Program-made: the position numbers and the translations under genes
NCBI RefSeq assembly: GCF_039522935.1
Contig: NZ_BAAAEI010000007.1
Span: 84,501 to 116,500, forward strand
Length of the DNA: 32,000 nt
Reading direction: 5' to 3'
From: Bowmanella denitrificans
GTDB taxonomy: Bacteria > Pseudomonadota > Gammaproteobacteria > Enterobacterales > Alteromonadaceae
In this document: positions 1,246 to 20,931 of the stretch, in pieces
How the letters are laid out: each line of letters starts with the position of its first letter
How positions within the stretch are numbered: position 1 is the first letter of the stretch
Notes under the pieces: generated by a model
What the model was told of the DNA's origin: nothing
The model's database searches: none
What the model saw: only the letters and a program-made list of their open reading frames with translations

Positions 1246-2583
1246 TCAGGCCGGCACCTCAATCCCTACATCGCGCATTCTGGCCAGCTTGTAGCGCAAA
1301 GTACGGGGGCTGATCCCCAATTTATCTGCTACGGCCTTGCGGCTACCATTACAGGATTTGAGTGTGTCGAGAATTATCTGGTGCTCCTGCTGTTGCAACT
1401 CCATCCCCAGCTTGCTGCCTTCAGGCTCGGTATCCAGTTCCGGCAGCTCATGAGGCAAGTCCGGCTCCAGCATCAAATCCATGGCATCAATCTGCTCATC
1501 TGTGGCCAGAATAAGGGCGCGCTGAATAACGTTTTCCAGTTCCCGTACATTACCTGGCCAGCTATATTGCTGCAGTTTATTACGCGCCGAAGCGCTAAGC
1601 ACAGGAATGGCCGCCCCTACTTTCTGGCTGTGTCGTTCAATCAGGTGCTGGGCCAGCGGAATAATATCGCCAGGACGTTGGGCTAAAGGCGACCAAGTTA
1701 ATGGAAACACATTGAGGCGGTAATATAAGTCTTCGCGAAAATCGCCCCGCGCCACCGCCTGACGTAAGTCGCGGTTACTGGTTGCCACTACACGCACATC
1801 CAGGTCGATGGTTTTACGACTGCCCAGGCGCTCGACTTCCTTTTCCTGCAACACGCGCAATAACTTGGCTTGCAGAGCCAGATCCATCTCGGTAATTTCA
1901 TCCAGCAAAATGGTGCCGCCCTGAGCCTGTTCGAACTTGCCCGGACAAGCCTGCAGCGCGCCGGTGAAAGCGCCTTTTTCATAACCAAACAAAGTGGCTT
2001 CGAGCATATTCTCCGGAATCGCCGCACAGTTAATTGCCACAAAAGGCTGTTCACTGCGACTGGACTGGTCATGAATATAGCGGGCTAGCACTTCCTTTCC
2101 GGAGCCGCTCGGGCCCAACACCATCACAGTGGCATCGGCCTTAGCCACTTTTTTGGCCAGTTCCAGTAGTTTTTTACTGGCAGGGTCTGCCACCACAGGC
2201 TGGCGGGATTCCACCTTCTGCGCTGGTGCATAACGCCCAACCAGATTAAGTAGCACCTGCGGAGCGAATGGTTTGGCCAGATAATCCGTGGCACCGTCGC
2301 GCATGGCCTGCACTGCGTCGTCAATTGTGGCATATGCCGTCATCAGCAGCACCGGCAAATTAGGTAGCTTCTGCTTAATGCTGCGCAGCAGCGACAAACC
2401 AGACATTTGCCCCATCTGAATATCACTGACCACCAAGTCCACCGGCTCCTGGCCGAGGATCGCCATAGCGGCTTCCGCACAATCGGCTTCCACAATCTGA
2501 TAGCCGCCCAGCAGTAAGGTATCAATCAGTGCTTCGCGCAAACCAGCGTCGTCTTCAACAATCAGGATTTTACTGTTACTCAT
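1246..2583 (-). CDS. flrC: Sigma54-dependent flagellar response regulator (FlrC/FleR type)
   Basis: ORF 1246..2592 has a receiver domain (DLVVSDIQMGQMSG), an AAA+ Walker A (GPSGSGKE), the sigma54-contact motif GAFTGA (EKGAFTGA) and a C-terminal Fis-type HTH (VADKLGISPRTLRYKLARM). The likely start is ATG 2583 (MSNSKILIVEDD). It forms an ATGA overlap with the flrB stop and has AGGAG 8 nt upstream. Confidence 0.9.
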   Translation of the reverse strand: MSNSKILIVEDDAGLREALIDTLLLGGYQIVEADCAEAAMAILGQEPVDLVVSDIQMGQMSGLSLLRSIKQKLPNLPVLLMTAYATIDDAVQAMRDGATDYLAKPFAPQVLLNLVGRYAPAQKVESRQPVVADPASKKLLELAKKVAKADATVMVLGPSGSGKEVLARYIHDQSSRSEQPFVAINCAAIPENMLEATLFGYEKGAFTGALQACPGKFEQAQGGTILLDEITEMDLALQAKLLRVLQEKEVERLGSRKTIDLDVRVVATSNRDLRQAVARGDFREDLYYRLNVFPLTWSPLAQRPGDIIPLAQHLIERHSQKVGAAIPVLSASARNKLQQYSWPGNVRELENVIQRALILATDEQIDAMDLMLEPDLPHELPELDTEPEGSKLGMELQQQEHQIILDTLKSCNGSRKAVADKLGISPRTLRYKLARMRDVGIEVPA

Positions 2584-3698
2584 CCTCTGCACTCCTTAGG
2601 AGTTAAGGTTTTTTCCAGTTGCCGCAAGATGGGCAAGCGAATATCAAATTTGGCCCCACCCTGTTCCAGATTGGCCGCCCGCACCTGGCCCTGATGGGAC
2701 TGGGCAACGGCCTTGACCACCGCCAGACCAAGACCTGTGCCCTGGCTTTTGGTGGTATAGAATGGGTCAAAAATATGCAGCAACTGCGCTTTGGGAATGC
2801 CCGGGCCGTTGTCTGCCACGCTGATCACCACTTCGGTTGGATTGAGGGGATCGCGCCCGGCTTGCAGGTGAATACGGCAGCCCTTGGGCATGGCCTGAAT
2901 GCTGTTGTGAATCAGGTTCTGCAGGGCACTGGCCAGGGCGGTTTTATTGCCCAGTACCAGAATATCCGGCTCGGGAAGCTCCACGGTCAGAATGGCCTGA
3001 CGCGCCATCAACATCGCTTCGGCACCGGCTTCTACTTCCAGCATCAGGCTTTGCAGCGATAACTCACTGACCACCTGCTGTTCGCCGCTTTTAGCAAACA
3101 GCAACATATCATTCACCTGCTGCTCTAAATCTTTAAGCCGGAATAGCAGTTTGTCGGCAAACTGGCCTCTGGCATCCAGTGTCAGAGTGGTGTTTTGTAA
3201 ATTGGCCGCATATAACATAGCCGCAGATAACGGCGTGCGGATCTGATGGGCCAGGGATGCGACCATACGCCCTAAGGACGACAGCTTCTGCATATGGCTG
3301 AGCTGCTGCTGCAGGCGCCGGGTTTCGGTCAGATCGGTCAGCACAATCAACTGACCGGGTTCCAGCTCCAATGGGCTGATAGACAGTTTCACCTTGCGAC
3401 CATCACGCAACGATATCTCATGACCATCATCGGCACGCGGCTTAAAGGAACGTTGAATTATAGTGCGCCAGGCCTCGCCTTCCAAAGGCTCGCCCAGCAA
3501 TTCAATGGCAACCTGATTGGCCTGGCGTACCTGGCCATGGCCGTCCACCACAATCACGCCGGCCGGCATCACCTCTAGCAAATGCTCCAACCGCGAGGAC
3601 TGTTGCTGTAAACGCAAAAGCTCACCGGCGTCGGGTAAAATCTCCATTTGTGAATGGAGAGTGGTTTGGTCTGCAGCGGCGTTAGGCTGGCTAAGCAT
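2580..3698 (-). CDS. flrB: Cytoplasmic PAS sensor histidine kinase (FlrB/FleS type)
   Basis: The protein has no TM segment. It carries a PAS-like N-terminus (MPAGVIVVDGHGQVRQANQVAIELLG), an H-box (SLAHQIRTPLSAA), an N box (LIHNSIQAM) and G boxes (DNGPGI, GTGLGLAVV). It is translationally coupled to flrC, and GAGG lies 6 nt before the ATG. Confidence 0.9.
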   Translation of the reverse strand: MLSQPNAAADQTTLHSQMEILPDAGELLRLQQQSSRLEHLLEVMPAGVIVVDGHGQVRQANQVAIELLGEPLEGEAWRTIIQRSFKPRADDGHEISLRDGRKVKLSISPLELEPGQLIVLTDLTETRRLQQQLSHMQKLSSLGRMVASLAHQIRTPLSAAMLYAANLQNTTLTLDARGQFADKLLFRLKDLEQQVNDMLLFAKSGEQQVVSELSLQSLMLEVEAGAEAMLMARQAILTVELPEPDILVLGNKTALASALQNLIHNSIQAMPKGCRIHLQAGRDPLNPTEVVISVADNGPGIPKAQLLHIFDPFYTTKSQGTGLGLAVVKAVAQSHQGQVRAANLEQGGAKFDIRLPILRQLEKTLTPKECRG

Positions 3699-3866: not shown

Positions 3867-4940
3867 TTAGCGCAAGCGCTTAAACAAATCCAGATTCTGG
3901 GCGTGGTTGCCCATCTTTTTGTCCTGCTTGATCATCAGGCTGTTGTACAGCACAAAGACTCCGATAAAGGCCAGTAATCTTGTGCTCTCACTGACACCCG
4001 CTAATTGGGTAACGATACCGACACAACTGGCCACCGCAGACACTACGCCGATAAAACAGGTGGCCTGGAAAGGGCTCAAGCCATTGAACAACATAATATG
4101 ATGTAAATGATCGCGACTGGCCCGCAGCGGTGACAAACCGGCTAATATCCTTCTCAGCATCACTGAGACCATATCCATCAAGGGCACCGCAATCAGCCAC
4201 AAGGCAGTTACAGGTTGAATAAAGGCGCCGTCGCCCTGAGTGAAATAAGCCAGCAACCAGATCATGGTCAGACCAATCAGCATACTACCCGCATCACCCA
4301 TAAAGACTTTATAGCGACCGCCTTTAAAGCGCCCAAAGTTAAAAAACAGGAACGCAAACAATGCGCCAAGGAACATAGCGGGCAACTCGGATGAAATGAC
4401 CACGCCTGAAAACAGCGCCAGAATCCCCATCGCCACGAAGGTATTAATGCTCAGGGTGCCTACCAGTCCATCAATGCCGTCTGTCATATTAAAAGCGTTG
4501 ATGGCGGCCACTACTGCTAACAAGGTAAACAGAGGCGCAAACCAACCAAGATTAATACTGCCACCACCGAAAAGATTACCCAGTTCACTGATATAGAGAT
4601 CGGCACCAAACACCATCAGTGAACCTATCAAAAACTGCGCCACCAGCCTTAAGCCAGCGTCTAAATCATGATAATCATCCAGCGCCCCGATCAACACCAT
4701 AAAGGCGGTGGAGATCAGATACAGCTTATATTGATTGTCAAAGTCCACGAACAAGAAACTACTAACACAGATAGCAGTATAAATGGCCAGCCCACCCACC
4801 AGCGGCACATCACCTATGTGCTGCTTGCGGGCGCAAGGTCTGTCCACCAGCCCCATACCGATAGCAAGGGGGCGGAAGGTCATCACACACAAAAAAGACG
4901 TGGCGAATGCTACAGCAACAACTATTGCAGTACTTAACAC
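3867..4940 (-). CDS. wecA: Undecaprenyl-phosphate HexNAc-1-phosphate transferase, polytopic MraY/WecA (PNPT) family
   Basis: The product is a 357-aa multi-TM protein. Its N-terminus RPLAIGMGLVDRPCARKQHIGDVPLVGGLAIY parallels E. coli WecA (as I recall it), and it has the family motifs DDYHDL and NAFNMTDGIDGL. It uses a GTG start. Confidence 0.85.
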   Translation of the reverse strand: MLSTAIVVAVAFATSFLCVMTFRPLAIGMGLVDRPCARKQHIGDVPLVGGLAIYTAICVSSFLFVDFDNQYKLYLISTAFMVLIGALDDYHDLDAGLRLVAQFLIGSLMVFGADLYISELGNLFGGGSINLGWFAPLFTLLAVVAAINAFNMTDGIDGLVGTLSINTFVAMGILALFSGVVISSELPAMFLGALFAFLFFNFGRFKGGRYKVFMGDAGSMLIGLTMIWLLAYFTQGDGAFIQPVTALWLIAVPLMDMVSVMLRRILAGLSPLRASRDHLHHIMLFNGLSPFQATCFIGVVSAVASCVGIVTQLAGVSESTRLLAFIGVFVLYNSLMIKQDKKMGNHAQNLDLFKRLR

Positions 4941-5317
4941 GATAAAACTCTACAAAGGAAAATTAAGGATAAGAAAACCTGTATAACCAGTTACTTTTGT
5001 CAGGTTCCTTCCTGCTAAAGCCCTAGTGGGCGCGGCAATTCTAAGAGATTGCAGCCGGTTCATCAAGTTCCTGCCCATATCCTATTCTCGTTATATTTAT
5101 ACTCTTCAGGCTTTACGGCCCAAAGCGCCAATGGACTGTTAGAGTGTATGCTTACCGAAAATTTAATCAACCGTACAAAATGTTATTAATTGATATTGTA
5201 TTTAACCTTGCTACAAAGTAGCACGTTGTGGTGGTGACCTCGCCGCACTGACCAACATGGCTTGGCCAAATAGCTGTTCCTACCTATCGATCACACAAGG
5301 AAGCCGACTCTGCCAAC

Positions 5318-5437
5318 CAAGGTCATAGCAGTAGTCAGATTGCTGACCTATTGCAGCCCCGCAGCTCGGAATATGGTTGGTGTCAACGCCAAGAACAAAC
5401 CAATATGGAAGGATTATATAATGCCAGACCAGGTTAG
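5318..5437 (+). pseudogene. Possible remnant of a transposase N-terminal HTH (IS630/Tc1-like), no intact ORF
   Basis: My translation gives QGHSSSQIADLLQPRSSEYGWCQRQEQTNMEGLYNARPG*. This resembles the GxS..IA..L..S...V..W......GL....RPG winged-helix pattern of IS630-type transposases. It is flanked by stops, and no catalytic domain is recognisable downstream. Confidence 0.3.
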
Positions 5438-5921
5438 AATTTAAAAAGTTCTGACTTGCTTATCGCCATGCTGAGGTTGATGCTCCAGCCGGTCTGTACT
5501 CCCTGAGTCAACAGAACTGAAAACTCTGTTATACCCTGCATAAAACCGAGAGCCGCAGCCATCAATGCGAAGTGATGTGGACATTGCATAAACAAGAGAA
5601 AGACTTTATGGCAGCATTCCCGTTCCCTGGCAAAGGCCATGGGACCATTAATGTGGCAGAGAAATAGGAACACTTATAATTAGCTCAATCGAGCAACATG
5701 CAACTTGTTTGCCTGGTGCTTCAAACAAGAAGAGGAAGTTGGGGTTTTCGTCTTTGCCATTGTGTCACCTAATGTGGTTGAGGCAACATCATCGCAGCTC
5801 TAATCAGGTGGCCTAATTCACTTGGCCACTACACAGCCGTCTTCAGCAGGCTGTGTATGGACAGATGAAGAACATTATGTTTATGCTGGACCAAATAGCC
5901 ATATACCTGAGTTTATTGTAG

Positions 5922-7871
5922 ATGAGCGATGACATTGGAACCTTGATAGAAGCAGGAAAGTTCAAAAAAGCACTGTCACTGTTGAAAAAAAATAAAAAAC
6001 CTAAGCACTTTCTATCCGCTGAGCAAGAAGCGCTTTGCTGGTTTAATACCAAACAATACAAATTAGCAAAAATTTCTTTTAGCGAAGCCCTGAATATGGC
6101 GACGGAACCACAGCAACGCATTAGAACGCTTAACAATCTGTCAGCAGTGGGACACTTTCTTCAAGATAAAGAACTGTCTAAAAACTCACTAATACAGAGT
6201 GTTAATATAGATGGTTCTATCGCCAACATTCAGGCAAGGATGAAGTTATGCAATATACTATTCGAAGAACAACATTATAGTGAAGCAGTGGAATTTGCCA
6301 AACCATTATTAAGTAATGAAGAGCAGAGCAATCGCACTTTATTCTTTATTATAGATTGCCATCAAAAAAACAATGATCGAGTTTCAATGCTTGAATGGCT
6401 TGACAAAGCTGTAGCAAGATCTAACTTTCTTGAAAAAAATTACTTACTCCAAGCTCTTAATTTATTTCATCAATGTAATGAGTTTGAAAAAGAGAGTTCT
6501 TTTTTTAAAAAGATAGAAAAATCAATTGAAAATGAAATTTGGTTTTCAGAAGTAAGAGACAGAATCACAACAAAAAATAACACAAGAACTATAAACTATA
6601 AAACAACAAGTTACATACCCTCTCATCGAGTGGATGGAGATAATCAACACGCCATTGATGTAACAAAAAAATTAATCACAACACTTGAAAAAAATGGAGC
6701 ATTTTTCGACCAAAGAATTCGCTTTGTAATTTTTGACGGGAATTTATCCATTGTCACTTCTCAGTCAATAGAAGACCCTACAGTTCTTATGTCCGTTCCT
6801 GTTCGCTGCATGCCTTTGTTAGACGACTATGAGTTTAGCATTGATACTAGCTATCAATTGATTTGTACTCCGAAAAAAGTACCTATGAACTCTGAATCCG
6901 TTCCAATCATGCAGTTGTTGATAGAGCTATATAATGCAACAGGAAAAATTCAACAGTGGAAGGATGTTTATCCTCTTACCGCATTGGCTGCCCATCCTGA
7001 GCTGTTGAACAAACTTTGCGAAAGTAAACGTCATTCCAGCTCACTCAATGCCATGCTGGATTTACTGCGTTCAGAAAAAAATGAGGAGTTATTGATCAGC
7101 AGTTATTTTTCATCTCGAAGATTTTCATATAATCAGAAAACACTTAAGACAGCGGGAGTTAGAACTCATAACGAAGTCGAATATGGGTTGCTATCTGTTA
7201 TTGATTTTCTAAACCACTCCATGCATGTGCCTGGCTATTCAGTGAATGAAGATAAGCCAAGCATTGAAGTAGCAGGTAACAAGCTTAACAGTGGAGATGA
7301 GATCTTTGTTAGATATAATTTTGACGATCCTGTAATTACTTATCTCACCTATGGCTTTGTAGACGAGCATGCCCCATGGTTTTTCAGTGTTCCTTTAGAA
7401 TTTCAAATTTCAAATGGATTGAATATAAGAGTACTTAATTGTACAGGTGCCGTTAACAATGCCAAAATACCTAAAGAAATGCAAGGGCTACGAGATTTTC
7501 TGCCTAGCACATTCGCATTAGAAGACAACAGGCTAGATATTAGCAGTCTGGTAATTCCAGGTAAAGATAGATGGACCAGCCTAATGATGATAGTTAACTT
7601 CATCCTTAACTATATAAACATCAGTGGATTATTTTCCAACTCAAATCAATTGGAAAGCGCGGCAAAAGAAATAATAAATAAAATTATCGAAATGAATGTT
7701 CTTTACTGGAAAGAACTCAGGAGTACTTGTCTTAAATTCGAAGGATACGAAAGCAAAGTACTAAAGCAACATCTACAAAATATTGAAAAACTATCTGATT
7801 TTGCACTAAGAAATATAGATAACTATATGGGAGCGTCAGGGTATTTATTAACCAACGATAAGCATCACTAA
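5922..7871 (+). CDS. TPR-like repeat protein with LSMT/SETD6-like SET domain (putative protein-lysine methyltransferase)
   Basis: This is a 649-aa ORF. Residues 1-200 are helical TPR-like repeats (for example EQHYSEAVEFAKPLL). The SET signatures are an N-SET strand block FDGNLSIVTSQSIEDPTVLMSVP, LLSVIDFLNHS (the D..NH motif), and SGDEIFVRYNFDDPVITYLTYGFVDEH (GE.vf..Y......YGF). A long insert separates the N-SET block from the NH motif. GC is very low (17/60 at 6541-6600). Confidence 0.55.
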   Translation: MSDDIGTLIEAGKFKKALSLLKKNKKPKHFLSAEQEALCWFNTKQYKLAKISFSEALNMATEPQQRIRTLNNLSAVGHFLQDKELSKNSLIQSVNIDGSIANIQARMKLCNILFEEQHYSEAVEFAKPLLSNEEQSNRTLFFIIDCHQKNNDRVSMLEWLDKAVARSNFLEKNYLLQALNLFHQCNEFEKESSFFKKIEKSIENEIWFSEVRDRITTKNNTRTINYKTTSYIPSHRVDGDNQHAIDVTKKLITTLEKNGAFFDQRIRFVIFDGNLSIVTSQSIEDPTVLMSVPVRCMPLLDDYEFSIDTSYQLICTPKKVPMNSESVPIMQLLIELYNATGKIQQWKDVYPLTALAAHPELLNKLCESKRHSSSLNAMLDLLRSEKNEELLISSYFSSRRFSYNQKTLKTAGVRTHNEVEYGLLSVIDFLNHSMHVPGYSVNEDKPSIEVAGNKLNSGDEIFVRYNFDDPVITYLTYGFVDEHAPWFFSVPLEFQISNGLNIRVLNCTGAVNNAKIPKEMQGLRDFLPSTFALEDNRLDISSLVIPGKDRWTSLMMIVNFILNYINISGLFSNSNQLESAAKEIINKIIEMNVLYWKELRSTCLKFEGYESKVLKQHLQNIEKLSDFALRNIDNYMGASGYLLTNDKHH

Positions 7872-8220: not shown

Positions 8221-9138
8221 TTACCTTCGAAACATTATTGATATACAGATCCCGCAACTTCCAAATAAACTTCCGACAAGAACTCCCAACACCACAATTA
8301 GAGCACGCTTAGGAGCATATTTCTCTTCCGGGGTTATTGCGGGATCAATAGTTTTTAATACGTACTCAAGGCGGACACTCGCTAAAGCTATTGCCTTAAG
8401 GCGTTCCTCAATAATACGATAAAAGCTAGTTTGAATATCAACATTAGAGGCCGATTCAGCTTTCTCCGTCAAATAGTCCACCGTGCGTTGCAACTCCAAT
8501 ACTTCAGCATTTCTCATGTTTTCGTTCAAATCAGAAATTAGCCAGTCTAGGTATTGCTTCGATCGATGCTTCTCATAATAAACGAATGAAATCGACACTG
8601 TCTGTTCTGTTTTGTTGTATTCAATTTCAATTAATCTCATTAAAGCGAGGTAGAGCTCTGTTGTAGTAGGATAATAGGTACTTTCACCACTTTGTCTCTT
8701 CAGCCAGGTATTGGTTTTTGGATCAAACTTTTCCAAATCGTAGATCGCAGTATCAGTCTCCTTATTCCAACCTTTAACCGCAATTAACGGCACTTCCAAA
8801 TTCCGATTCCTGGCAAATTCGTTTAAAAACTGCCTGGATTCCAGAACTTGCAATGCCAAAGTGGTTTTATCTTTCGCTTGAGGTATTGATAAACCCGCCA
8901 GGTTGGCCAAACCACCAAATTGACTGGCCATTGCCGAAAGTCCAGATGCATCATTAACAGAGTTTGGCACTAGTAGTACATCGGCCCGGTATGTGTCGTA
9001 GGTTGTCCAGGCAAAAATGCCGAAGACAATGCCGACTGCAATACCTGAGGCAGCGACCCAAGTCCAACGCCTAATAAGCTCATGACAGAACTCTCCTATT
9101 CCTATCTTTAACAGCATATTCTCTTGCTTTATTGCCAT
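8221..9138 (-). CDS. wzz: O-antigen chain-length determinant, Wzz / PCP-1 family
   Basis: The 305-aa protein has an N-terminal TM (WVAASGIAVGIVFGIFAW), a long periplasmic coiled region, and a C-terminal proline motif plus TM (PEEKYAPKRALIVVLGVLVGSLFG). It is the last gene of the operon. Confidence 0.8.
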   Translation of the reverse strand: MAIKQENMLLKIGIGEFCHELIRRWTWVAASGIAVGIVFGIFAWTTYDTYRADVLLVPNSVNDASGLSAMASQFGGLANLAGLSIPQAKDKTTLALQVLESRQFLNEFARNRNLEVPLIAVKGWNKETDTAIYDLEKFDPKTNTWLKRQSGESTYYPTTTELYLALMRLIEIEYNKTEQTVSISFVYYEKHRSKQYLDWLISDLNENMRNAEVLELQRTVDYLTEKAESASNVDIQTSFYRIIEERLKAIALASVRLEYVLKTIDPAITPEEKYAPKRALIVVLGVLVGSLFGSCGICISIMFRR

Positions 9139-9863
9139 GACGAGTCCTTACTAAATAATAAATTGATTAGGAATTTTGGATAGTATTTAAACACTCTCTT
9201 GCGGGAATGAGGCTCAAACAACAGGCGATACAGCCAACGTAGCTCCAACTTGTTTATCCAATAGGGGTAATACTCTGCCTTCAGGGAGCTCTGATGAATG
9301 AACCCACCACAAGTAAAAATACCTTTTAGTCCGGTATTTGAGTAAGATTTAATATATTTTATAAACTCTTCCTGTTTAGGTGTCCCCATGCCGACTATTA
9401 CCACGTCTGCAGATTTGGAAAAAATATCTTCACAGGCTTTTGTCATCTCACTCTCATTCGAGAAATAGCCATTCCTTGCACCAACAACATTAAGTTTCGG
9501 AAACGTCTTAAGAAAAGAATCCCGGGAACCTTCCACTTCCTTCTGGTTGGCACCCAACAAATAAACTCGCAGATTGTTCTCTTCAGAGAATCTAAAAAAT
9601 ATGGGAGCCAGTGACGTCATGTCGAAACTGACTCTCTCTATTTTACATTTCAACCTCCAAGATAGCAGCTTGGCCCCCGAAACACCGTCACAATAAAGAT
9701 GATCCAAGGCATTCAATAGATCAGGCCTTTGCGCTAGTATTTGATAGGAGTAGGGGTTGACAAAAGATACTGAAACAGGCTCATCATGGTCGACTAAAAG
9801 GGACGCCAACAACTCTTCAGTTGAGGGGGCACTCTTAAGCTTTAAATTAATCAGGGCGTTCAC
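9129..9863 (-). CDS. WecG/TagA/CpsF family (GT26) glycosyltransferase
   Basis: Motifs are VIVGMGTPKQEEFI and LELRWLYRLLFEPHSRKR, which align with E. coli WecG (as I recall it). The ORF maximum is 9899, but GTG at 9863 forms a GTGA overlap with the upstream stop. Confidence 0.8.
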   Translation of the reverse strand: MNALINLKLKSAPSTEELLASLLVDHDEPVSVSFVNPYSYQILAQRPDLLNALDHLYCDGVSGAKLLSWRLKCKIERVSFDMTSLAPIFFRFSEENNLRVYLLGANQKEVEGSRDSFLKTFPKLNVVGARNGYFSNESEMTKACEDIFSKSADVVIVGMGTPKQEEFIKYIKSYSNTGLKGIFTCGGFIHQSSLKAEYYPYWINKLELRWLYRLLFEPHSRKRVFKYYPKFLINLLFSKDSSWQ

Positions 9864-10789
9864 TTCTTCAATACCTTTTGGATAACAAAAGAAGACCATT
9901 TATTGGGTAAGTAACTCAACACAAAGCTGGCAATAGACAGAACATTCCAGCTTATATACGGAAGTGACTTGAGATAAGCTCGAGCTTCGACTGTTCGCCC
10001 TGAAGAAATGTTATTCAAAACCATATATATACCGCTTCTGTTTAATAGCACTTTAACGGCTTGAGTATGCTCTCTAGCAATAACACCCTCTTGCAACCAA
10101 CAATTGAGTAACTTGACATGCGGAAGTGGCTCCAACACTTTATTAACACTACAAGCACTCCCGTCAACTTGATGAACATATGTAACTAAATCTATGTTTA
10201 CGAAAGCAATTTTTGAATGACTTGCCAACGACATCCACATGAATTGATCTTCTCCCATTGGCCAACCAACAGGGAAACCGTTAAATTGCTGAAGTTTGGA
10301 TTTTTTAATAACGACAGATGAAGCCGTTACCGGCAAGTGCCCTTTACTGGCGCTGGCGTAATAATTATCAAGTAACCCCGACCGATGAGGAACTTCGGAT
10401 AACTTTGCAGGCTTTCTGACCCCGTCAATAAGAAAGGAGTAGGCAGAGCAATACGCGCCAGCATCCGGATACGATTCAATAAGCAGACCAATCTGTTCAA
10501 GAAATGAGCTCTGCCAGTAGTCGTCCGCATCCAAAAAGGCAATATGTGCTCCCATGGAAGCTTTCCAACCAGTATTTCGTGCCGACGATACTCCTTGATT
10601 AGATTGTCGTATGATTCTAATTTTGCTATGCGCCAACTTTCTCACTAGCTCCGCACTACCGTCATTTGAACCATCATCGACGACGATAATCTCTAGCGCT
10701 TGATACGTCTGTTCTAAAACAGACTGCACAGCCCTGATGATATAGTCCCTCTTATTATAAAGAGGAATTACAACAGAGATATCAACCAC
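9860..10789 (-). CDS. Family 2 glycosyltransferase
   Basis: Motifs are ISVVIPLYNKRDYIIRAVQSVLEQTY, IIVVDDGSNDGS and the DxD motif FLDADD. The ORF maximum is 10849. I prefer GTG 10789, which has AGGTGG 7 nt upstream and an 8-nt overlap with the wzy stop. Confidence 0.8.
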   Translation of the reverse strand: MVDISVVIPLYNKRDYIIRAVQSVLEQTYQALEIIVVDDGSNDGSAELVRKLAHSKIRIIRQSNQGVSSARNTGWKASMGAHIAFLDADDYWQSSFLEQIGLLIESYPDAGAYCSAYSFLIDGVRKPAKLSEVPHRSGLLDNYYASASKGHLPVTASSVVIKKSKLQQFNGFPVGWPMGEDQFMWMSLASHSKIAFVNIDLVTYVHQVDGSACSVNKVLEPLPHVKLLNCWLQEGVIAREHTQAVKVLLNRSGIYMVLNNISSGRTVEARAYLKSLPYISWNVLSIASFVLSYLPNKWSSFVIQKVLKK

Positions 10790-12050
10790 TTTTTGCCCAC
10801 CTATCGCGAATATCTGACGAAGTTGAAGTAAACGCCAGTGCAAGCACAATACTTAACATAATTGAAGACGTACCATTAAATAGCACATGACCAGCCAGAA
10901 GAGAATGCATTGAAATCAGGAATAGACACATAACAATAAATATCTTCCCTGACAGAATACCCTTAACCATTCCTCTGATCAGAAGAACAGTAAACAATAG
11001 AGCCATCAATATTCCATAACAGAAAAAAAGTTCAAAAAAATCGTTCTCTAATGTTTTTCTAATTACAGATTGGCTGTACCAAAAGTCAAGATAGCTATAA
11101 TATGCCCCGCCACCAAATAAAAATCTGAGACTTTTCCAATCATTCCAATTTATTACCGAGAAAGCATCTTTTATAAATACATCTCTGGAACTTGCCAGTA
11201 TCTGAACTTTGTCATAGTCCGAATTTAGTTTTGATAGTATATTTTCAAAAACCAGCGAAAGAAATGAAACCAAATGAGAGTAGAAAAAAAAGATACATGA
11301 TAAAAATAAGATTAAAGTCAGTATAGGAGCCCTTCTCCAGCACAAAAAAGCAAGCACCGAGAAACAAATTATAGAGAGCACTAAAGCGGCTTTAGTACCA
11401 ATCAACACAATCGAAAATAGCATTAAGATTGAATAGCATAGGTAACTTAACTTATTGCTCAGATAGTTGGCATATAAACTAAGAAGACAAGCGATCCCCA
11501 ATGTAATACCTATGCCATTCCCTGAAACAAATAGTCCTCTGGTAGCCGCACCTCTACCTTCATAGTTTGGTATATGAAAACCTGAGATATACGCAGCAAT
11601 CAGAGTGATAGAGATAACAACTCCATATAAAACCGCAGACTTCATAATAAAGGCATAGGCATCGTCACGGCATTGAATCCAGGCCTTAAGAAATTCATAT
11701 AATAAAAAGAAGAAAAGTACCTTTGTGAGAAATACCACTCCAAAAATATATGCCTTTGGATTCACATGAAAAAATGCCACCACTGACTCTGTCAACAACA
11801 TAAAGCCAAGTAAAGCAAAAAATTTAAACAAAATAACCCGAGACTGACTAAACTGAAAGGAAGCAAAGAATAGAATTAAAAGCATTGACACACGTGCCAA
11901 TTGAGAAGGTGAACCTATCGCACCTTCCGATAACACCCCTAACTTAAACAACGCCCCCGTAAGGTTATCAACTAACGGCAAAATTAAAACACAAAGAAGA
12001 ATTATCGACTTCGGTATATCTATACTGACTTCTATACCAGACAGTTTCAA
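10782..12050 (-). CDS. wzy: O-antigen polymerase-like polytopic membrane protein (Wzy candidate)
   Basis: The 422-aa protein has about 10-12 predicted TM helices with one larger loop, about 30% GC (18/60 at 11281-11340), and the expected position in a Wzx/Wzy-type locus. Sequence-level Wzy identification is inherently weak. It uses a TTG start in a TTGA overlap. Confidence 0.6.
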   Translation of the reverse strand: MKLSGIEVSIDIPKSIILLCVLILPLVDNLTGALFKLGVLSEGAIGSPSQLARVSMLLILFFASFQFSQSRVILFKFFALLGFMLLTESVVAFFHVNPKAYIFGVVFLTKVLFFFLLYEFLKAWIQCRDDAYAFIMKSAVLYGVVISITLIAAYISGFHIPNYEGRGAATRGLFVSGNGIGITLGIACLLSLYANYLSNKLSYLCYSILMLFSIVLIGTKAALVLSIICFSVLAFLCWRRAPILTLILFLSCIFFFYSHLVSFLSLVFENILSKLNSDYDKVQILASSRDVFIKDAFSVINWNDWKSLRFLFGGGAYYSYLDFWYSQSVIRKTLENDFFELFFCYGILMALLFTVLLIRGMVKGILSGKIFIVMCLFLISMHSLLAGHVLFNGTSSIMLSIVLALAFTSTSSDIRDRWAKSG

Positions 12051-12616
12051 AACGCCTCCGGTTCATCTAGAAATCGCTGTCTGTATTTACTCTCGTATTC
12101 TTCGAAACGCTTAATAAATTTAGCTGGATTTCCTGCAACCACTGTACTATTGGGCACATTTTTAGTGACAACGCTACCGGCCCCAATTACGACGTTACTA
12201 CCGATAGTGACGCCTGCTAATACAATAGTTCCGACACCTATAAATACATTATCGCCTACATGAATAGCAGACCTATAAGAACGTCTAGCGCCAGGCAAAT
12301 ATGGCTGGCTTCGCACCTTAAGCTCGGGCATAAAGACTGTTGGAGAGGCATCATGCCCTAGAAAAGTAGTACCAGTTATAGTGCAATTGTTACCAATGAA
12401 GAATCTATCTCCTTTGTAAGAATGAGAGAATCGACAATCATACAAAACCGAGCCAGCACCAATCACCACCCCCTTCTTCTTATATCTTATTAGATCAAAG
12501 CGATATTGCATCGTTGCTAACAGATCACTCCCTTTTGGGGAAGAAAAAATTTTCAATGCAAATCCCAAAAAAAAGATGAGAAATTTGAAAAGAATGAGCT
12601 TAGTGATTTCAATCAT
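12047..12616 (-). CDS. Left-handed beta-helix (hexapeptide repeat) acetyltransferase
   Basis: The hexapeptide region is VGDNVFIGVGTIVLAGVTIGSNVVIGAGSVVTKNVPNSTVVAGNPAK, preceded by a hydrophobic N-terminus. The start forms an ATGA overlap with the upstream GT2. Confidence 0.8.
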   Translation of the reverse strand: MIEITKLILFKFLIFFLGFALKIFSSPKGSDLLATMQYRFDLIRYKKKGVVIGAGSVLYDCRFSHSYKGDRFFIGNNCTITGTTFLGHDASPTVFMPELKVRSQPYLPGARRSYRSAIHVGDNVFIGVGTIVLAGVTIGSNVVIGAGSVVTKNVPNSTVVAGNPAKFIKRFEEYESKYRQRFLDEPEAF

Positions 12617-13509
12617 TTTCTCTCGAACTCCCTCAAAATCTTGAACTTGTACAGAAACTTAATCCAAAACCCATAATACCTTACCATCATTAAGACAGAA
12701 GCAATTCGAATAAAATCCGTCAAGCTATTTGACCTTCTGGCAATGTACATCACACCATTAACTGGCGGTATTAATAGTCTAAGCAGCCCTAAGAAAGTGA
12801 ATTGTTCGGCCATGTAATCTTCCTGATTTCTCAATTTGTATGCACCGCCCATTATCCTTCTAATTTTGGTTCGATACTCTTTCCAACTGGCCCTGGCAGG
12901 ATGTAAAACAACTGCGTGTTCAGCAAAACCAAAAGATTTTCCCATCCGACTTGCACGTTTACAAAACTCAACATCTCCGCCAGACAATGTCTCAGCATTA
13001 AATACACCGATATCTTCAAATATCTTTCGATGCAAAAACAAGTTGGCAGTAACACAGTGCCCCGCTCTAACGTTTTCACGTTGCTGAAAGGCAAATAGTT
13101 GTTCATATAATTCAATTGAATTGGGAACACTTGAAGCTGAAAAAACCTTTATATCCCCCGCCACTATTACATTTTTTGACTCGTTTTTAAGGGCAGCTAC
13201 CCCTTCGGCAATCCAACTTGGGTCGGGAATACAATCTGAATCAGTAAATGCAATGATGTTTCCTTGGGCAATACATAATCCTTTGTTTCTAGCTTTGTAA
13301 GACCCCTTTTCGGTTTCTGTGGCTAATCTGACAAATTTAAAGGGACTACAACACTTCTCAATTGCAGATGGTTCACTTGAGCCGTTGTCGATAACTATAA
13401 CTTCAAAAGGTACATCTCCACTTTGCACATTAAGCGCTGAGAGGCACTTGAAAAGTCGGCTCGTGTCGTTATAAACCGGTATAATGACCGACACAATGAT
13501 TTCACTCAT
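12613..13509 (-). CDS. Family 2 glycosyltransferase
   Basis: Motifs are VSVIIPVYNDTSRL, VIVIDNGSS and the DxD motif FTDSDC. Confidence 0.8.
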   Translation of the reverse strand: MSEIIVSVIIPVYNDTSRLFKCLSALNVQSGDVPFEVIVIDNGSSEPSAIEKCCSPFKFVRLATETEKGSYKARNKGLCIAQGNIIAFTDSDCIPDPSWIAEGVAALKNESKNVIVAGDIKVFSASSVPNSIELYEQLFAFQQRENVRAGHCVTANLFLHRKIFEDIGVFNAETLSGGDVEFCKRASRMGKSFGFAEHAVVLHPARASWKEYRTKIRRIMGGAYKLRNQEDYMAEQFTFLGLLRLLIPPVNGVMYIARRSNSLTDFIRIASVLMMVRYYGFWIKFLYKFKILREFERK

Positions 13510-14698
13510 TCAACAGTTTCCCGGCCAGCGTTTTCCACGAAAAGGAAGTTAGCGCCAGTTGTCTGGGTTGATATGCCAGACCGTTGTTAAACTTACATTC
13601 CATACATCTTTGCATCGCCTCAGCCAAAGACTCAGCATTCGCATCATCAGCATAAAAGGCATATTTACCAATGACCTCCTCGGTTGCCGTATCAACGCCT
13701 GGTCCACTTCGAAAAGCAACCACAGGCAAATCGCAGGCCAGCGCCTCCAGTATCGTCTGCCCCAATGGCTCATATCTTGAGCTCATAACGAAAGCATCAG
13801 CTATCTGATAATACTTAAGTGGATTGGAACTTTGACCTATAAATTCAATCTGGTTTGACATGCCGAGTTCATTTGCACGACGCTTTAGTTCTTCCAGCTC
13901 TGGACCGTCTCCAACAAGAACAAGCTTGCATTGACTTAAGGACCGCATAGCGTCTACTAAAAGATCAAAACCTTTGGCTCTAACCATTCGACCCACTGAC
14001 AAAAACACAAAGTCATTTTCAAAGATGGAAGAGTCTTTTTTCAGTGCTTTTTTAGCTTGTTCACTAAGCGGTTTAAAAAAGTCACAATCAACCCCAGGTT
14101 TTACAATTGATACAGTGTCTTTTGGGGATGCAACAGTTGCCACTTGTTTAAACATGGTCTCGCTGAATACCAAGCACCTGTCAACAAAAGAAAGTGCCAA
14201 CTTTTGCACCCACATATGATATCTCTTTTTCAACCGTAATATCATGGAACGAGAGAGTCCCGGGTTTGATTGCAAATTCTTAACAGAATCCTGATACTTA
14301 ACCACACCGGGAATTAAGTAACACTGAGGCTTTAGACCAGCCATGGTGGCTAAAAGCGTGGTAAGGTGATAGCGTGAAACAGTAAGAACAGGTGAATAAC
14401 GCTTTCTAATTTCTATAAACTGGGAAAGCAAATTCATTAGCACAATAATTCCATTAAAAGGTAGTGCTATTTTTGAATTAATAAATCTTGTACGATATCT
14501 CCTGACTTCAACATTCTCGATTATTTCATCCACATAAGCTGGAGACCAGCCGACGTCACTAATCAATATTATTACATTATATCCTTTTTCAGAGAATGCT
14601 CTGGCAAGATAATACAAAGAATTTTCTACTCCACCCCGATTAGGTAAGTAAGCATTACTGGTGAGTAAAATATATTTATTTAATGAACTAAAATTCAT
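13502..14698 (-). CDS. GT4 (Glycos_transf_1) glycosyltransferase
   Basis: The C-terminal E-x7-E region is SSRYEPLGQTILEALACDLPVVA. The ORF maximum is 14716; ATG 14698 ([12 protein letters not shown]) forms an ATGA overlap with the upstream stop. Confidence 0.8.
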   Translation of the reverse strand: MNFSSLNKYILLTSNAYLPNRGGVENSLYYLARAFSEKGYNVIILISDVGWSPAYVDEIIENVEVRRYRTRFINSKIALPFNGIIVLMNLLSQFIEIRKRYSPVLTVSRYHLTTLLATMAGLKPQCYLIPGVVKYQDSVKNLQSNPGLSRSMILRLKKRYHMWVQKLALSFVDRCLVFSETMFKQVATVASPKDTVSIVKPGVDCDFFKPLSEQAKKALKKDSSIFENDFVFLSVGRMVRAKGFDLLVDAMRSLSQCKLVLVGDGPELEELKRRANELGMSNQIEFIGQSSNPLKYYQIADAFVMSSRYEPLGQTILEALACDLPVVAFRSGPGVDTATEEVIGKYAFYADDANAESLAEAMQRCMECKFNNGLAYQPRQLALTSFSWKTLAGKLLNE

Positions 14699-15759
14699 GA
14701 TAACAACTTCAACCAAGTATCTTGCAATGCTTGCTCGGAGAAGTTGGCAAGCAACAATTCTTTATTCCTATTAAGTTTCACATCAGATTTAATAGATATA
14801 GATAAGAAATCTTCATCCTTAATAGTACGGGTATCTTTAATACAAAATCCAAGCTGTTTAAAAGTGTTAAAACTGCTAGTACCACTTTTAACATAAAGGG
14901 TTTTTCCATTCATGAGCATATAATATGCCACAAAAAGTCCTTGCTGCCTTTCATGTCCGAGAACTGCCACGTCCATATCAAGTAGATATTCCTCAAAATC
15001 AGACTTACTCAACAGCTCTAATATAGGAATAAACTTGCAAGGAAAGAGACGCTTCCCTGTGTCAATAACCATTTCTATATACTTTCTGCTGACTACGCTT
15101 GGGTAATTCAATGGCACATGAATTTCAATATCTTCGGATGCAAGCTTGCTTAAGTCATGTAAAAGTTCAATATGACAGTTGGTTTCTGTCGCAGAGTTTC
15201 CTAACAGGATCTTCAGAGGACCACCAGTATTCTTTTTGAAGGGCAGTGGTTTAACATCGATTAAAGGATAAGGTAACACTCCGACATTGCGATGCTTAAG
15301 TAGTTTTTCAAGCAACTCTGCGTCACCACTGTTCAGTGCTGAAACAGATTTCATTCTGTGAGCCGCCAGCCCTCGAATGATGCGCTTGAGAGTTCTTGAA
15401 TAAAGTCGTCTGGGCCGGACACGCATATCATGAATATCTCCTCCCCAAGCTATCCAATGACACTTGGACGTTAACTTAGAGAGTGCCAGTCGATAGGCCA
15501 CAGCCAGATCAAACATGCCATGGAATACAATAGCGTCGCAGTCTTTGGTAGATAACAATTCGAACAACTGTTGTGCGTTACCGTAAAACTCTACCCCTTC
15601 TAAGTGTGCATATTTGAGTTTTTCATTGTCATTTGGCACTCGGACACAAAAAGACAAATCCTGCTCAATATATACTTTTCTGAAATATGGGATCATATTC
15701 AGGTTATGTTGAGGTGTTGAGTGAAAAACATGGATCACCATTACCCTTCCCATACTCAT
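14695..15759 (-). CDS. GT56 family, WecF-like 4-alpha-L-fucosyltransferase (dTDP-4-acetamido-4,6-dideoxyhexose transferase) homologue
   Basis: The sequence parallels E. coli WecF along its length (from my memory of that sequence). Matches include [12 protein letters not shown] vs LIHVLGSDIPHHN, FHGMFD vs [20 protein letters not shown] vs ILVGNSGDRSNEHI, and RQQGLF vs RQQGIG. Confidence 0.65.
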
Positions 15760-20580: not shown

Positions 20581-20931
20581 TTATAGCGATTGTTGGCTAT
20601 GCGATTGCTCGGCTTCAATAATAGCCAAACGCTGTACCAGACGGTTAATAGTAACCTGCATGCGGGCTCTTTCGATATCCGCCAGCAGAAGTTTAATCAA
20701 AATAACGCCCATTCCCACCAACACAGGAATAATGGGTGGATAGCCAATTTTGAGATATTGGCCCAGCACATCTACCCAGGAGGGAAATATCCCTGCTACC
20801 AATATAAGGCAGGCAATCAGCATCCATTTAATACCGTCGCGATGCATCAGATGGTCACGACGGATCAACACAATAATACTGATCCCGATAGCCAGGCTGA
20901 TTAGGGCAGAAATAAGTTGCGGAGTATTCAT
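20581..20931 (-). CDS. DUF2304-type small membrane protein
   Basis: The ORF maximum is 21033, but ATG 20931 (MNTPQLISALISL...) forms an ATGA overlap with the GT2 stop. The 116-aa product has four hydrophobic segments plus a C-terminal coiled tail (RLVQRLAIIEAEQ). This architecture and its pairing with a GT2 are typical of DUF2304. Confidence 0.65.
   Translation of the reverse strand: MNTPQLISALISLAIGISIIVLIRRDHLMHRDGIKWMLIACLILVAGIFPSWVDVLGQYLKIGYPPIIPVLVGMGVILIKLLLADIERARMQVTINRLVQRLAIIEAEQSHSQQSL

Follow-up and report, generated by a model that had tools for sequence, protein, structure and literature searches.

The plus-strand gene at 5922..7871 of the window, the 32,000-nucleotide stretch of Bowmanella denitrificans DNA that was analyzed, encodes a protein in which an N-terminal TPR module is joined to a SET domain. 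Profile comparisons and the structural model almost certainly place this domain among genuine enzymes of the SETD3/LSMT/SETD6 class. The reading offered here for the protein as a whole, at about even confidence, is that of a cytoplasmic, TPR-targeted lysine methyltransferase that would decorate an exported surface protein, with a layout like that of FlmG.

The gene and its surroundings

The gene is complete. Its open reading frame has an ATG start, encodes 649 amino acids plus a stop and matches B. denitrificans WP_343844213.1 exactly; the reading frame described in the earlier note was recovered with the same coordinates, strand and length, and with the peptides exactly as quoted. The start codon is right, as the N-terminus lines up with the start of a Pseudoalteromonas homolog (alignment with P0002). 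No signal peptide or transmembrane segment was found in the 649-residue product, the maximum hydropathy over 19 residues being 1.54.

The gene does lie between wecA and the O-antigen operon, as had been claimed. On one side are the genes of an FlrC-like sigma-54 regulator (1246-2592), an FlrB-like kinase (2580-3698) and a WecA-type GT4 initiating glycosyltransferase (3867..4940; PF00953, E = 5e-32) homologous to WecA of the related locus L001 (E = 3e-50), all on the minus strand. On the other side a minus-strand glycan operon is found from 8221. Its first gene, Wzz (8221-9138), is homologous to the gene in L001 that carries PF02706 (E = 7e-45), its second is WecG (9129-9899; PF03808, E = 2e-32), and GT2, Wzy-like and other genes belong to it as well. 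The 981-bp non-coding gap 5' of the gene (4941..5921) contains candidate plus-strand promoters at 5653-5680 and 5858-5887, as located by a promoter scan. An Rfam search of the gap gave no match, and it was found to contain no remnant of slr4 or of any other neighbor gene and no repeats. Neither slr4 nor T2SS or PEP-CTERM genes were found in the 32-kb window, and a word-indexed search, which is a limited kind of search, gave no match for a Bowmanella Slr4.

The gene had been taken for acquired cargo because of a GC content of about 28% and a strand opposite to that of all its neighbors. The GC value holds for the 60 nucleotides at 6541-6600 (28.3%) but not for the whole gene (35.3%, with a GC3 of 31.5%). 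The whole-gene value is the lowest nearby, next to 35.9% for the wzy-like gene, a mean of 43.8% for the glycan operon and 54-55% for flrBC. The argument from GC was thus overstated, low GC being common to the glycan locus. Locally, this is the sole plus-strand gene; farther off, another is present at 26365-28482. Better evidence for accessory status comes from its presence or absence across related loci and from the transposases that adjoin it in two loci.

The SET domain

Three SET blocks are present in the order given in the earlier note: FDGNLSIVTSQSIEDPTVLMSVP at residues 271-293, LLSVIDFLNHS at 423-433 and SGDEIFVRYNFDDPVITYLTYGFVDEH at 457-483. The SET signatures, which had been assigned to residues 283-485, begin at residue 271. 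The blocks coincide with columns that are conserved across 127 diverse homologs and are therefore not chance resemblances: R399, H432 and Y465 were each found in 127/127, N431 in 126/127, E460 in 121/127 and F479 in 118/127, while D469, Y477 and D481 are conserved in at least 90%.

The N-terminal β-strands of the SET domain (6705..6872, plus strand; residues 262-317) include the first block and are modeled at residues 266-271, 274-279, 287-293, 303-307 and 313-317. G273 and P293 are conserved in the family, and hhalign aligned these strands with the N-SET region of SETD3, EGFGLRATRDIKAEELFLWVP, at E = 8e-4. A gap of about 130 residues had been pointed out between the first two blocks; 74 of these residues (324-397; 6891..7112, plus strand) form an i-SET-like insert of six helices in the model, at pLDDT >95, in which N338 and K342 are nearly invariant. 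A helical i-SET has been described for SETD3 and LSMT (PMC6400499). The catalytic C-terminal half (7113..7376, plus strand; residues 398-485) carries the motifs S-R399-R-F401, DFLN431-H432, E460-x-F-V-x-Y465 and Y477-G-F479-V-D481. The tail recognized earlier beyond the SET region is a C-terminal domain (7377..7868, plus strand; residues 486-649) modeled as strands followed by three long helices. It is placed as the substrate-binding C-domain of LSMT, SETD3 and SETD6, with Foldseek alignments that span 459-498 columns, the tail included.

A HMMER check against Pfam SET (PF00856) and Rubis-subs-bind (PF09273) had been proposed, and neither model matched at threshold. Pfam SET gave no match to the 649-residue product even at E ≤ 10. 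None of 82 family members reached its threshold, four of the 82 being sub-threshold matches (best E = 0.014), and the C-terminal domain had no Pfam match to Rubis-subs-bind. The automatic UniRef name is 'SET domain-containing'. When the core-only profile of the 82 members was compared with the PDB, the best match was SETD6 (3qxy), residues 209-278, at E = 2.9e-5; weaker matches to EZH1/2 and PTAC14 cover the same stretch (EZH2, E = 0.3). Alignment by hhalign to LSMT residues 171-259, using an LSMT sequence verified at 100% against 2h21, gave E = 2e-5 and a probability of 77%. It paired R399 with LSMT R222, F401 with F224, N431-H432 with N242-H243, Y465 with Y287, Y477 with Y300 and F479 with F302.

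The proposed AlphaFold and Foldseek check bore out the class. The AF2 model has a pLDDT of 96.5 and a pTM of 0.93, and the top 35 PDB matches to it are SETD3, PTAC14, LSMT and SETD6 (E from 8e-10 to 7e-5, probability 1.00), SMYD proteins appearing only from rank 36. In all, 44 PDB matches were obtained at E ≤ 1e-3, and all those listed are SET-domain proteins. The global TM-scores are low, at 0.35-0.48 for SETD3, LSMT and SETD6, and identity to the eukaryotic class members over the Foldseek alignments is 10-15%. The original call of a TPR protein with an LSMT/SETD6-class SET domain is thus upheld by the profile match to SETD6, the hhalign match to LSMT and the modeled structure. Its description as eukaryote-style is apt structurally; a recent transfer from eukaryotes is not suggested, because identity is so low and the bacterial family is large.

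Activity and target residue

In SETD3, AdoHcy is bound by N278, H279, F327 and R254 (PMC6400499). The predicted AdoMet-binding residues of the Bowmanella protein (R399, N431, H432 and F479) and its predicted catalytic tyrosine, Y465, are intact. In LSMT and SETD6 a phenylalanine makes the cation–π contact with the lysine, and Asn256 takes its place in SETD3 (PMC6400499). Among the 127 homologs the F401 column consists of F77 L27 M8 V6 I3 Y3, with Asn absent from these six commonest residues. The I427 column, which aligns with LSMT A238 and with the SETD3 tryptophan, consists of I91 V22 L5 A3 M3 F1, and here Trp is absent from the six commonest. In PDB entry 6v62, the N255F/W273A mutant of SETD3 has a lysine-substituted peptide bound. 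Since F401 is of the LSMT type rather than the asparagine of SETD3, and since I427 is aliphatic rather than tryptophan, the ε-amine of lysine is the most likely target. The predicted enzyme is probably catalytically active and directed at lysine.

The TPR module

The proposed substrate-docking domain is the N-terminal TPR module (5922..6629, plus strand; residues 1-236), with about 13 helices and a solenoid that extends to about residue 220. Scans of the single 649-residue sequence against Pfam, NCBIfam and the PDB gave weak TPR matches only (TPR_2, ANAPC3, PilW and PrsT). The family profile matched consensus TPR structures at E = 1.8e-59, and the AF2 model shows a confident TPR solenoid of 13 helices over residues 1-200, with a pLDDT of 80-93. 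Both agree with the earlier description of about 200 residues of TPR-like helices preceding the SET region. An HMM of the module finds further TPR-fused proteins at related loci, one of them in L004 at E = 6e-21.

Core-only forms that lack the TPR module occur at slr4 or glycan loci (L002 and L017) and also in unrelated housekeeping contexts (L011-L013). The TPR module is therefore not required in every member, and other substrates are conceivable for the wider family.

Family and related loci

The bacterial family is unannotated and comprises 556 representatives at 50% identity, whose database labels read 'hypothetical' or 'TPR repeat protein'. Marine bacteria of the Alteromonadales type and metagenomes are the sources of the relatives. 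The TPR-fused arrangement had been thought to be undescribed, and a literature search found no paper on a TPR-fused bacterial protein of the SETD3/LSMT/SETD6 type.

Genomic context was counted over 21 loci of the close branch, made up of the window and 20 related loci. Together, slr4 and its T2SS adjoin the gene in 8/21 loci, and in six of the ten with flanks of 5 kb or more in both directions; both were the top conserved neighbors in unbiased neighbor clustering. The S-layer protein Slr4 has been characterized by experiment and has a dedicated T2SS encoded upstream (PMC7821379), and this T2SS is the sole linked feature described in the Slr4 literature that was compared. Conversely, only 1/4 Slr4-anchored loci carries the TPR-SET gene, so that Slr4 biogenesis can do without it. 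As neighbors, polysaccharide genes are commoner than slr4, adjoining the gene in 12/21 loci, so that the adjacency could reflect a glycan pathway and not a protein. The commonest are Wzz and WecG, each in 6/21 loci, and GT4 neighbors clustered in three loci. Glycan-tailoring sulfotransferases, a pyruvyl transferase and acyltransferases co-occur with the gene. In three loci (L016, L021 and L022) it comes directly after two genes, one for a multi-TPR protein and the other for a PEP-CTERM protein, and no labeled glycan or T2SS genes were found in the DNA examined around it.

The SET core is also found fused to other modifying enzymes. P0079 combines TPR, Sulfotransfer_3, TPR, class-I methyltransferase and SET core, P0093 a class-I methyltransferase and SET core, and P0076 a GT41 and SET core. 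Separate TPR-sulfotransferase genes are located nearby in L009 and L017, as is a TPR-methyltransferase gene in L004.

Proposed role and alternatives

The 649-residue product is proposed to be a soluble, cytoplasmic, two-part protein-modifying enzyme. By analogy with FlmG, its TPR solenoid (residue 1 to about 220) would capture a substrate protein. The remainder (residues ~262-649), acting as a SAM-dependent SET methyltransferase with its helical insert and C-terminal domain, would then methylate a lysine of the captured protein before export. The contexts seen in relatives suggest as substrate an abundant protein of the cell surface that is exported and produced together with surface polysaccharide: for many of them the candidate would be Slr4, the S-layer protein with a T2SS of its own, and for others a PEP-CTERM protein. 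An exported surface protein as the substrate, recruited through the TPR module, is plausible, though held at somewhat less than even confidence. In Bowmanella the gene lies within the WecA/Wzz/WecG glycan locus, with slr4 not nearby. The enzyme would be an optional member of a strain-variable, TPR-guided toolkit that also includes a TPR-sulfotransferase, a TPR-class-I methyltransferase and a GT41.

The frequency of polysaccharide genes allows the methylation to be seen instead as regulatory, aimed at assembly machinery such as Wzz, WecA, a T2SS pseudopilin or a secretion ATPase, with the TPR module docking onto the complex. Polysaccharide genes are the sole related neighbors in the window, Wzz and WecG recur in six loci each, and a complex that assembles glycan could just as well be the docking site of the TPR-fused sulfotransferases and methyltransferases. 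Against this, the 21 loci have no one machinery gene in common, the three PEP-CTERM loci show no labeled glycan or T2SS genes in the DNA examined, and the fusion to GT41, a family that glycosylates proteins, is more in keeping with decoration of the cargo. Regulation of the machinery is considered unlikely.

The known substrates of the SETD3/LSMT/SETD6 class are abundant non-histone proteins (ribosomal proteins, Rubisco and actin), and the gene could accordingly specify a housekeeping methyltransferase of an abundant cytoplasmic protein, for example a ribosomal protein or an elongation factor, its position in a glycan locus being incidental. Actin, for one, is the substrate of SETD3 (PMC6400499). 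Distant core-only relatives do occur in unrelated housekeeping neighborhoods, one example being a Magnetospiraceae MAG with genes for uvrB, endonuclease V and ATP synthase as neighbors. On the other hand, the context of the TPR-fused branch is non-random, with T2SS and slr4 as top neighbors, PEP-CTERM genes, and sulfotransferase and GT41 fusions, and the gene is accessory and strain-variable, which would be unusual for a housekeeping modifier. We regard this explanation, too, as an unlikely one.

Flagellin had been named as the first candidate substrate. The TPR module would then bind flagellin, or pilin, as in FlmG, a precedent for a TPR-enzyme fusion aimed at flagellin, and the SET domain would methylate surface lysines as FliB is known to do on flagellin. 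The flrB and flrC regulators do lie 2-4 kb upstream in the window. They are separated from the gene by wecA and the 981-bp gap, however, and transcription is divergent; no flagellin gene is present within the 32 kb. Flagellar genes are missing from the labeled neighbors at all 20 related loci, where Slr4 and PEP-CTERM genes recur instead. The candidate thus gains no support from these loci and appears quite improbable.

A non-protein substrate is less probable again. The enzyme would be a glycan-tailoring N-methyltransferase acting on an amine of the surface glycan, which might belong to an amino sugar or to an amino acid, such as lysine, joined to a uronic acid through an amide; marine Gammaproteobacteria are known to have polysaccharides that carry amino acids. 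In favor are the location of the gene inside glycan loci, its co-occurrence with the tailoring enzymes listed above and a RimK-like ATP-grasp ligase gene that adjoins it in L001. Against this, we know of no characterized SET enzyme whose substrate is other than a protein lysine or histidine, a TPR module and a large C-terminal domain are typical protein-recognition modules, and the GT41 fusion points to proteins.

A host-directed effector acting on host histones like Legionella RomA/LegAS4, Chlamydia NUE and Burkholderia BtSET is scarcely credible. The comparison was made in the earlier note, and the protein is indeed a bacterial one that combines a SET domain of eukaryote-like fold with repeats. 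Against it are the facts that the best structural matches are SETD3, LSMT and SETD6 and not histone KMTs or effector SET domains, that the relatives belong to the self surface-biogenesis operons of marine bacteria and metagenomes, and that the protein has no secretion signal.

Significance

To our knowledge, the SETD3/LSMT/SETD6 class has been characterized only in eukaryotes, on actin, Rubisco, RelA and ribosomal proteins. The family described here would add a large, unannotated bacterial branch with a predicted intact catalytic center, one sub-branch of which is fused to TPR, and this branch bears on the origin of the eukaryotic enzyme class. For annotation, the Pfam SET model misses all 82 members tested. 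The TPR-SET gene is an overlooked feature of Slr4 loci, and its slr4 and T2SS, PEP-CTERM and glycan neighbors lead to a testable hypothesis, the lysine methylation of an S-layer or other surface protein.

More speculatively, marine Gammaproteobacteria might possess a toolkit (SET, Sulfotransfer_3, class-I methyltransferase and GT41) that decorates Slr4 or PEP-CTERM proteins before export and diversifies the surface in the manner of O-antigen variation. The window gene would in that case be the first bacterial member with a defined role in a class that has a broad, ancient bacterial branch of >500 clusters. This wider proposal is tentative and, as it stands, rather unlikely.

Comparison with known systems

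LSMT (pea, 1mlv/2h21) and SETD6 (human, 3qxy) share the fold class of the Bowmanella protein (Foldseek E = 8e-7 and 4e-5, respectively). In common are the AdoMet-binding arginine, the NH pair, the catalytic tyrosine, the YGF motif and the channel phenylalanine (F401, corresponding to LSMT F224), with the helical insert and the C-terminal domain in the same position. They differ in that identity is 10-15% and TM about 0.35-0.43, and that only the bacterial protein has a TPR module and is encoded at surface-layer and glycan loci. Human SETD3, which N-methylates actin His73, gave the best match of all to the model (E = 8e-10, TMq up to 0.48). The N-SET strands of SETD3 could be aligned by hhalign and its AdoHcy-binding Arg, Asn, His and Phe are shared, whereas Asn255/256 is replaced by Phe or an aliphatic residue and Trp273/274 by Ile or Val. 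As these histidine determinants of SETD3 are absent, lysine and not histidine is the predicted target.

Most of the bacterial SET proteins known so far are compact effectors aimed at a host, and RomA carries an ankyrin repeat domain. RomA/LegAS4, NUE, BtSET and the bacterial and archaeal SET proteins of about 130 residues have a compact, histone-KMT-like SET domain and host or nucleoid targets, unlike the long-insert architecture with a large C-terminal domain found here. None of RomA/LegAS4, NUE and BtSET was among the top 50 Foldseek matches.

The closest likeness in layout is to Caulobacter FlmG, in which an N-terminal TPR domain and a C-terminal catalytic domain are likewise combined in one cytoplasmic protein (596 residues, compared with 649). 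In FlmG the N-terminal TPR domain is both required for the binding of flagellin and sufficient for it (PMC7591256); flagellin is bound in the cytoplasm and is modified there by the catalytic domain ahead of its secretion. The catalytic part of FlmG is a GT-B glycosyltransferase, without homology to the SET domain, and its substrate is flagellin. Membership of the FlmG family was rejected on the grounds of the SET catalytic domain, the layout alone being alike.

FliB of Salmonella, which acts on flagellin, and PKMT1/2 of Rickettsia, which act on OmpB, are not known to be SET-domain enzymes. No link from any of them to S-layer or PEP-CTERM proteins is known to us. What they would share with the Bowmanella enzyme is a concept, the methylation of lysines, while still in the cytoplasm, on a surface protein that is abundant and exported.

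The TPR-SET gene and its surroundings

The plus-strand ORF at 5922-7871 is present as described in the earlier note, and its 649-aa product contains all of the peptides quoted there. The protein is identical to WP_343844213.1 of Bowmanella denitrificans, which carries the name hypothetical at NCBI and, by automatic annotation, SET domain-containing protein in UniRef. The three SET motif blocks reported previously were all located, with FDGNLS...SVP at residues 271-293, LLSVIDFLNHS at residues 423-433 and SGDEIFVRY...YGFVDEH at residues 457-483, although the first begins 12 residues before the start originally assigned. A GC content of about 28% is true of the 60 nt that had been counted, but the whole gene has 35.3% (GC3 31.5%). 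Values elsewhere are 35.9% for the wzy-like gene, a mean of 43.8% for the minus-strand operon, 49% for wecA and 54-55% for flrB and flrC.

The neighbours were also as first read, with flagellar regulators and WecA on one side and glycan genes on the other, all on the minus strand. On the wecA side the order is FlrC-like sigma-54 response regulator, FlrB-like kinase, WecA-type GT4, a 981-bp gap and TPR-SET. On the other side a 349-bp gap is followed by Wzz, WecG, GT2, Wzy-like, acetyltransferase, GT2, GT1, GT56, RmlA, RmlB, Wzx, aminotransferase and further genes, the glycan genes running on to the end of the window. The gap next to wecA (4941-5921, 44% GC) is non-coding and unusually long, and all it contains is a pair of promoter-like sites and a 79-aa ORF in antisense (5434-5673). 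A decayed slr4, a mobile element or an RNA was ruled out here, as blastx, blastn and Rfam gave no match and no repeat was present; nor did 4941-5921 hold remnants of genes from related loci. The surroundings of the TPR-SET gene yielded no terminator-like sites.

The glycan locus contains a second plus-strand gene, at 26365-28482, whose 705-aa product has a Wzy_C/O-antigen-ligase domain (PF04932, E=1e-12). This product is large enough for a WaaL- or PglL-type ligase or a protein O-oligosaccharyltransferase, and so might join glycan to protein. A protein with a Heparinase II/III-like C-terminal domain (PF07940, E=1e-52) is encoded at 31167-31985 (-), and a DUF2304 and GT2 gene pair at 20581-21647 (-).

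Identification of the SET and TPR domains

Single-sequence scans of the protein against Pfam, NCBIfam and PDB detected no SET domain. The Pfam check proposed in the earlier note returned TPR matches, below threshold, but no SET match; NCBIfam gave weak PilW and PrsT TPR matches and PDB gave designed TPR proteins. This failure is ascribed to limited sensitivity and was not counted as evidence against a SET domain. Likewise, none of the family members tested reached the threshold of the Pfam SET model. A word-indexed homology search found just three relatives, at 30-35% identity. An exhaustive HMMER search, seeded with the core profile of these three, yielded a bacterial SET-core family of 556 representatives at 50% identity, 222 of them with E<=1e-30, in two main forms of about 640 aa (TPR and core) and about 400 aa (core only). 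Across 127 members R399, H432 and Y465 are invariant, while conservation is 90% or more for N431, E460, D469, Y477, F479 and D481.

Compared with PDB, a four-sequence profile reached SETD6 at E=1.1, too weak a match, and a deeper alignment was therefore required. The 127-sequence profile was swamped by its TPR columns, so the search was repeated with core-only members. This profile (82 members) had SETD6 (3qxy) as its best match, at E=2.9e-5 over DFLNH...E.F..Y...YGFV, with EZH1/2 and PTAC14 aligned over the same stretch lower in the list. The family also aligned to LSMT with hhalign (E=2e-5), placing S-R399-R-F401 on S-R222-A-F224, N431-H432 on N242-H243, Y465 on Y287 and Y477-G-F479 on Y300-G-F302. 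With SETD3 the N-terminal strands were matched (E=8e-4). The reference sequences were checked and are 100% identical to PDB chains 2h21_A (LSMT) and 3smt_A (SETD3).

A first AlphaFold2 run on the full-length protein with 4 sequences gave pLDDT below 50 for the SET core and was used for the TPR module only, which had pLDDT 80-93 over residues 1-200. Together with the match of the family profile to consensus TPR structures (E=1.8e-59), this model confirms the predicted N-terminal TPR module. A second run, which took residues 237-649 and the alignment of 127 sequences as input, reached pLDDT 96.5 and pTM 0.93. The model has N-terminal strands (residues 266-317), a six-helix insert (324-397), a catalytic half (398-485) and, after residue 485, a C-terminal domain of strands and three helices, which lies where LSMT has its Rubis-subs-bind domain but gave no Pfam match to that family. 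The Foldseek check suggested in the earlier note placed SETD3 (best E=8e-10), PTAC14, LSMT and SETD6 at ranks 1-35 against PDB, with SMYD below.

Core profile, hhalign and structure model thus all bear out the original reading of an LSMT/SETD6-type SET protein, and modeled structure, profile and motifs agree in assigning it to the SETD3/LSMT/SETD6 class. By homology, the protein is shown to be a SET methyltransferase that depends on SAM and has an intact centre, joined to a TPR solenoid.

Predicted residue specificity

SETD3, which matched best in structure, is a histidine methyltransferase. The Phe that stacks on the substrate lysine in LSMT and SETD6 is replaced by Asn256 in SETD3, where AdoHcy is contacted by N278, H279, F327 and R254 (PMC6400499). 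PDB 6v62 is a SETD3 N255F/W273A mutant with a lysine-substituted peptide. In the 127-member alignment the Phe401 column holds F77 L27 M8 V6 I3 Y3 and the Ile427 column I91 V22 L5 A3 M3 F1; neither Asn in the former nor Trp in the latter is among the top six residues. On these pocket residues a SETD3-like histidine specificity was rejected. The AdoHcy-binding residues are all conserved in the family, and the protein is likely to be an active, lysine-directed enzyme.

Genomic context of the family

The close branch was compared over 21 loci (the window, L001-L010 and L014-L023), with neighbours labelled by an Slr4 HMM and label transfer. The S-layer protein gene slr4 (PF19526) and a dedicated T2SS adjoin the TPR-SET gene in 8/21 loci, and in 6 of the 10 that extend 5 kb or more on each side of it. 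The two genes share a strand in L001, L002, L008 and L010, with slr4 upstream, immediately so except for one small intervening gene in L002; they converge in L004, L009, L015 and L020. Wzx/Wzy-type polysaccharide genes, among them WecA, WecG, Wzz, sulfotransferases and pyruvyl transferase, occur in 12/21 loci including the window. Unbiased all-against-all clustering of the neighbours ranked T2SS and Slr4 highest (8 loci), followed by Wzz and WecG (6 loci each). In three loci the TPR-SET gene directly follows genes for a multi-TPR protein of about 950 aa, which we take to resemble PrsT, and a PEP-CTERM protein of about 350 aa (L016 5040-9110; L022 605-4725; L021 1-1751); no exosortase was seen near this pair in the available sequence. 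The 32,000-nt window itself has no slr4, T2SS or PEP-CTERM genes, and no Bowmanella Slr4 was among 38 matches of a word-indexed search, a weak test for that reason.

When four Slr4 genes were picked independently of SET (L024-L027), one locus had the TPR-SET gene, namely L024, whose strain is probably closely related to that of L008. In L025-L027 slr4 is followed by a sulfotransferase and polysaccharide cluster with nothing between. The TPR-SET gene is accessory. Transposase genes lie immediately downstream of the SET gene in L002 (rve, 11299-12330, -) and L009 (Transposase_mut, 12019-13230, -), two independent loci, which fits a gain-and-loss hotspot at the slr4/glycan junction. A split TPR in L002, where a 207-aa gene precedes a core-only homologue, was rejected (BLASTP E=1.5, no Pfam match).

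In every Slr4 locus examined (L001, L004, L008 and L024-L027), slr4 is followed by a polysaccharide cluster that includes a flippase gene and two Sulfotransfer_2 genes, suggesting that the S-layer has a sulfated glycan of its own, which would serve in anchoring or glycosylation. In Pseudoalteromonas gelatinilytica, a gene of the RimK-like ATP-grasp type (L001 11976-12935, -; PF08443, E=5e-5) is convergent with TPR-SET, and its product could ligate amino acids to a protein or glycan carboxylate. Slr4 has been characterised by experiment as an S-layer protein and its upstream T2SS noted; the accessible portions of these papers mention neither the sulfated-glycan cluster nor a SET, TPR or methyltransferase gene beside slr4 (PMC7821379, PMC11094555).

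More distant core-only relatives of about 400 aa, with the same invariant catalytic residues, occupy unrelated neighbourhoods (L011-L013; proteins P0106 and P0131). One, from a Magnetospiraceae (Alphaproteobacteria) MAG, has endonuclease V on one side and uvrB on the other. Other substrates are therefore probable for the wider family.

Fusions and TPR-linked modifiers

One family member of 1662 aa (P0079) combines TPR, Sulfotransfer_3, TPR, a class-I methyltransferase and the SET core in one chain, and P0093 joins a class-I methyltransferase to the core. Such fusions to other modifying domains argue that the SET enzyme is part of a shared modification pathway. Separate TPR-sulfotransferase genes (Sulfotransfer_3) occur in L009 (13447-15180, -), one gene away from slr4, and in L017 (11574-13319, +; 582 aa), beside a core-only SET gene. 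In Pfam, Sulfotransfer_3 covers the protein tyrosine sulfotransferases, which would hint at protein sulfation. L004 encodes a TPR-class-I methyltransferase (13214-14968, -) and, immediately downstream of TPR-SET, a 599-aa protein (11198-12994, +) whose N-terminal 200 aa or so match the TPR module of TPR-SET end to end (E=6e-21), more strongly than does the L017 sulfotransferase. Its C-terminal domain of about 370 aa has no Pfam match, and the protein may be a further TPR-guided modifier. With only the TPR module in common, it was ruled out as a second SET paralogue; a C-terminal domain common to it and the 582-aa protein was rejected, the latter being a TPR-sulfotransferase.

Putative substrate

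The TPR-SET protein has no signal peptide or transmembrane segment, so action in the cytoplasm is expected. There it would methylate lysine on a substrate captured by its TPR module, by analogy with FlmG, the Caulobacter TPR and GT-B flagellin glycosyltransferase, whose N-terminal TPR domain is required and sufficient to bind flagellin before export (PMC7591256). The substrate would be Slr4 in many relatives and the PEP-CTERM protein in others. Recruitment of an exported surface protein by the TPR module is the favoured but tentative reading.

The glycan or secretion machinery, whose genes share these loci, is unlikely to be the target, and a housekeeping substrate is a shade less likely. Flagellin is improbable: the flrBC genes are nearby in the window, but no flagellar genes are among the labelled neighbours at any related locus. 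Methylation of an amine-bearing glycan is more doubtful still, and fusion of the core to GT41, the OGT/SPINDLY protein glycosyltransferase family (P0076), favours a protein substrate. Structural class and ecology make a host-directed effector very improbable.

Comparison with known systems

As the earlier note supposed, no published account of a TPR-SET fusion was found, nor any report of a bacterial SETD3/LSMT/SETD6-class member or of S-layer methylation by a SET enzyme. The enzymology itself is familiar; what is undescribed, and open to direct testing, is the bacterial family with its architecture and surface-layer context. In chemistry TPR-SET resembles LSMT and SETD6, and it is not an effector SET protein of the RomA/NUE type. 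Its domain layout, TPR plus enzyme, is that of FlmG, although the two are not homologues.
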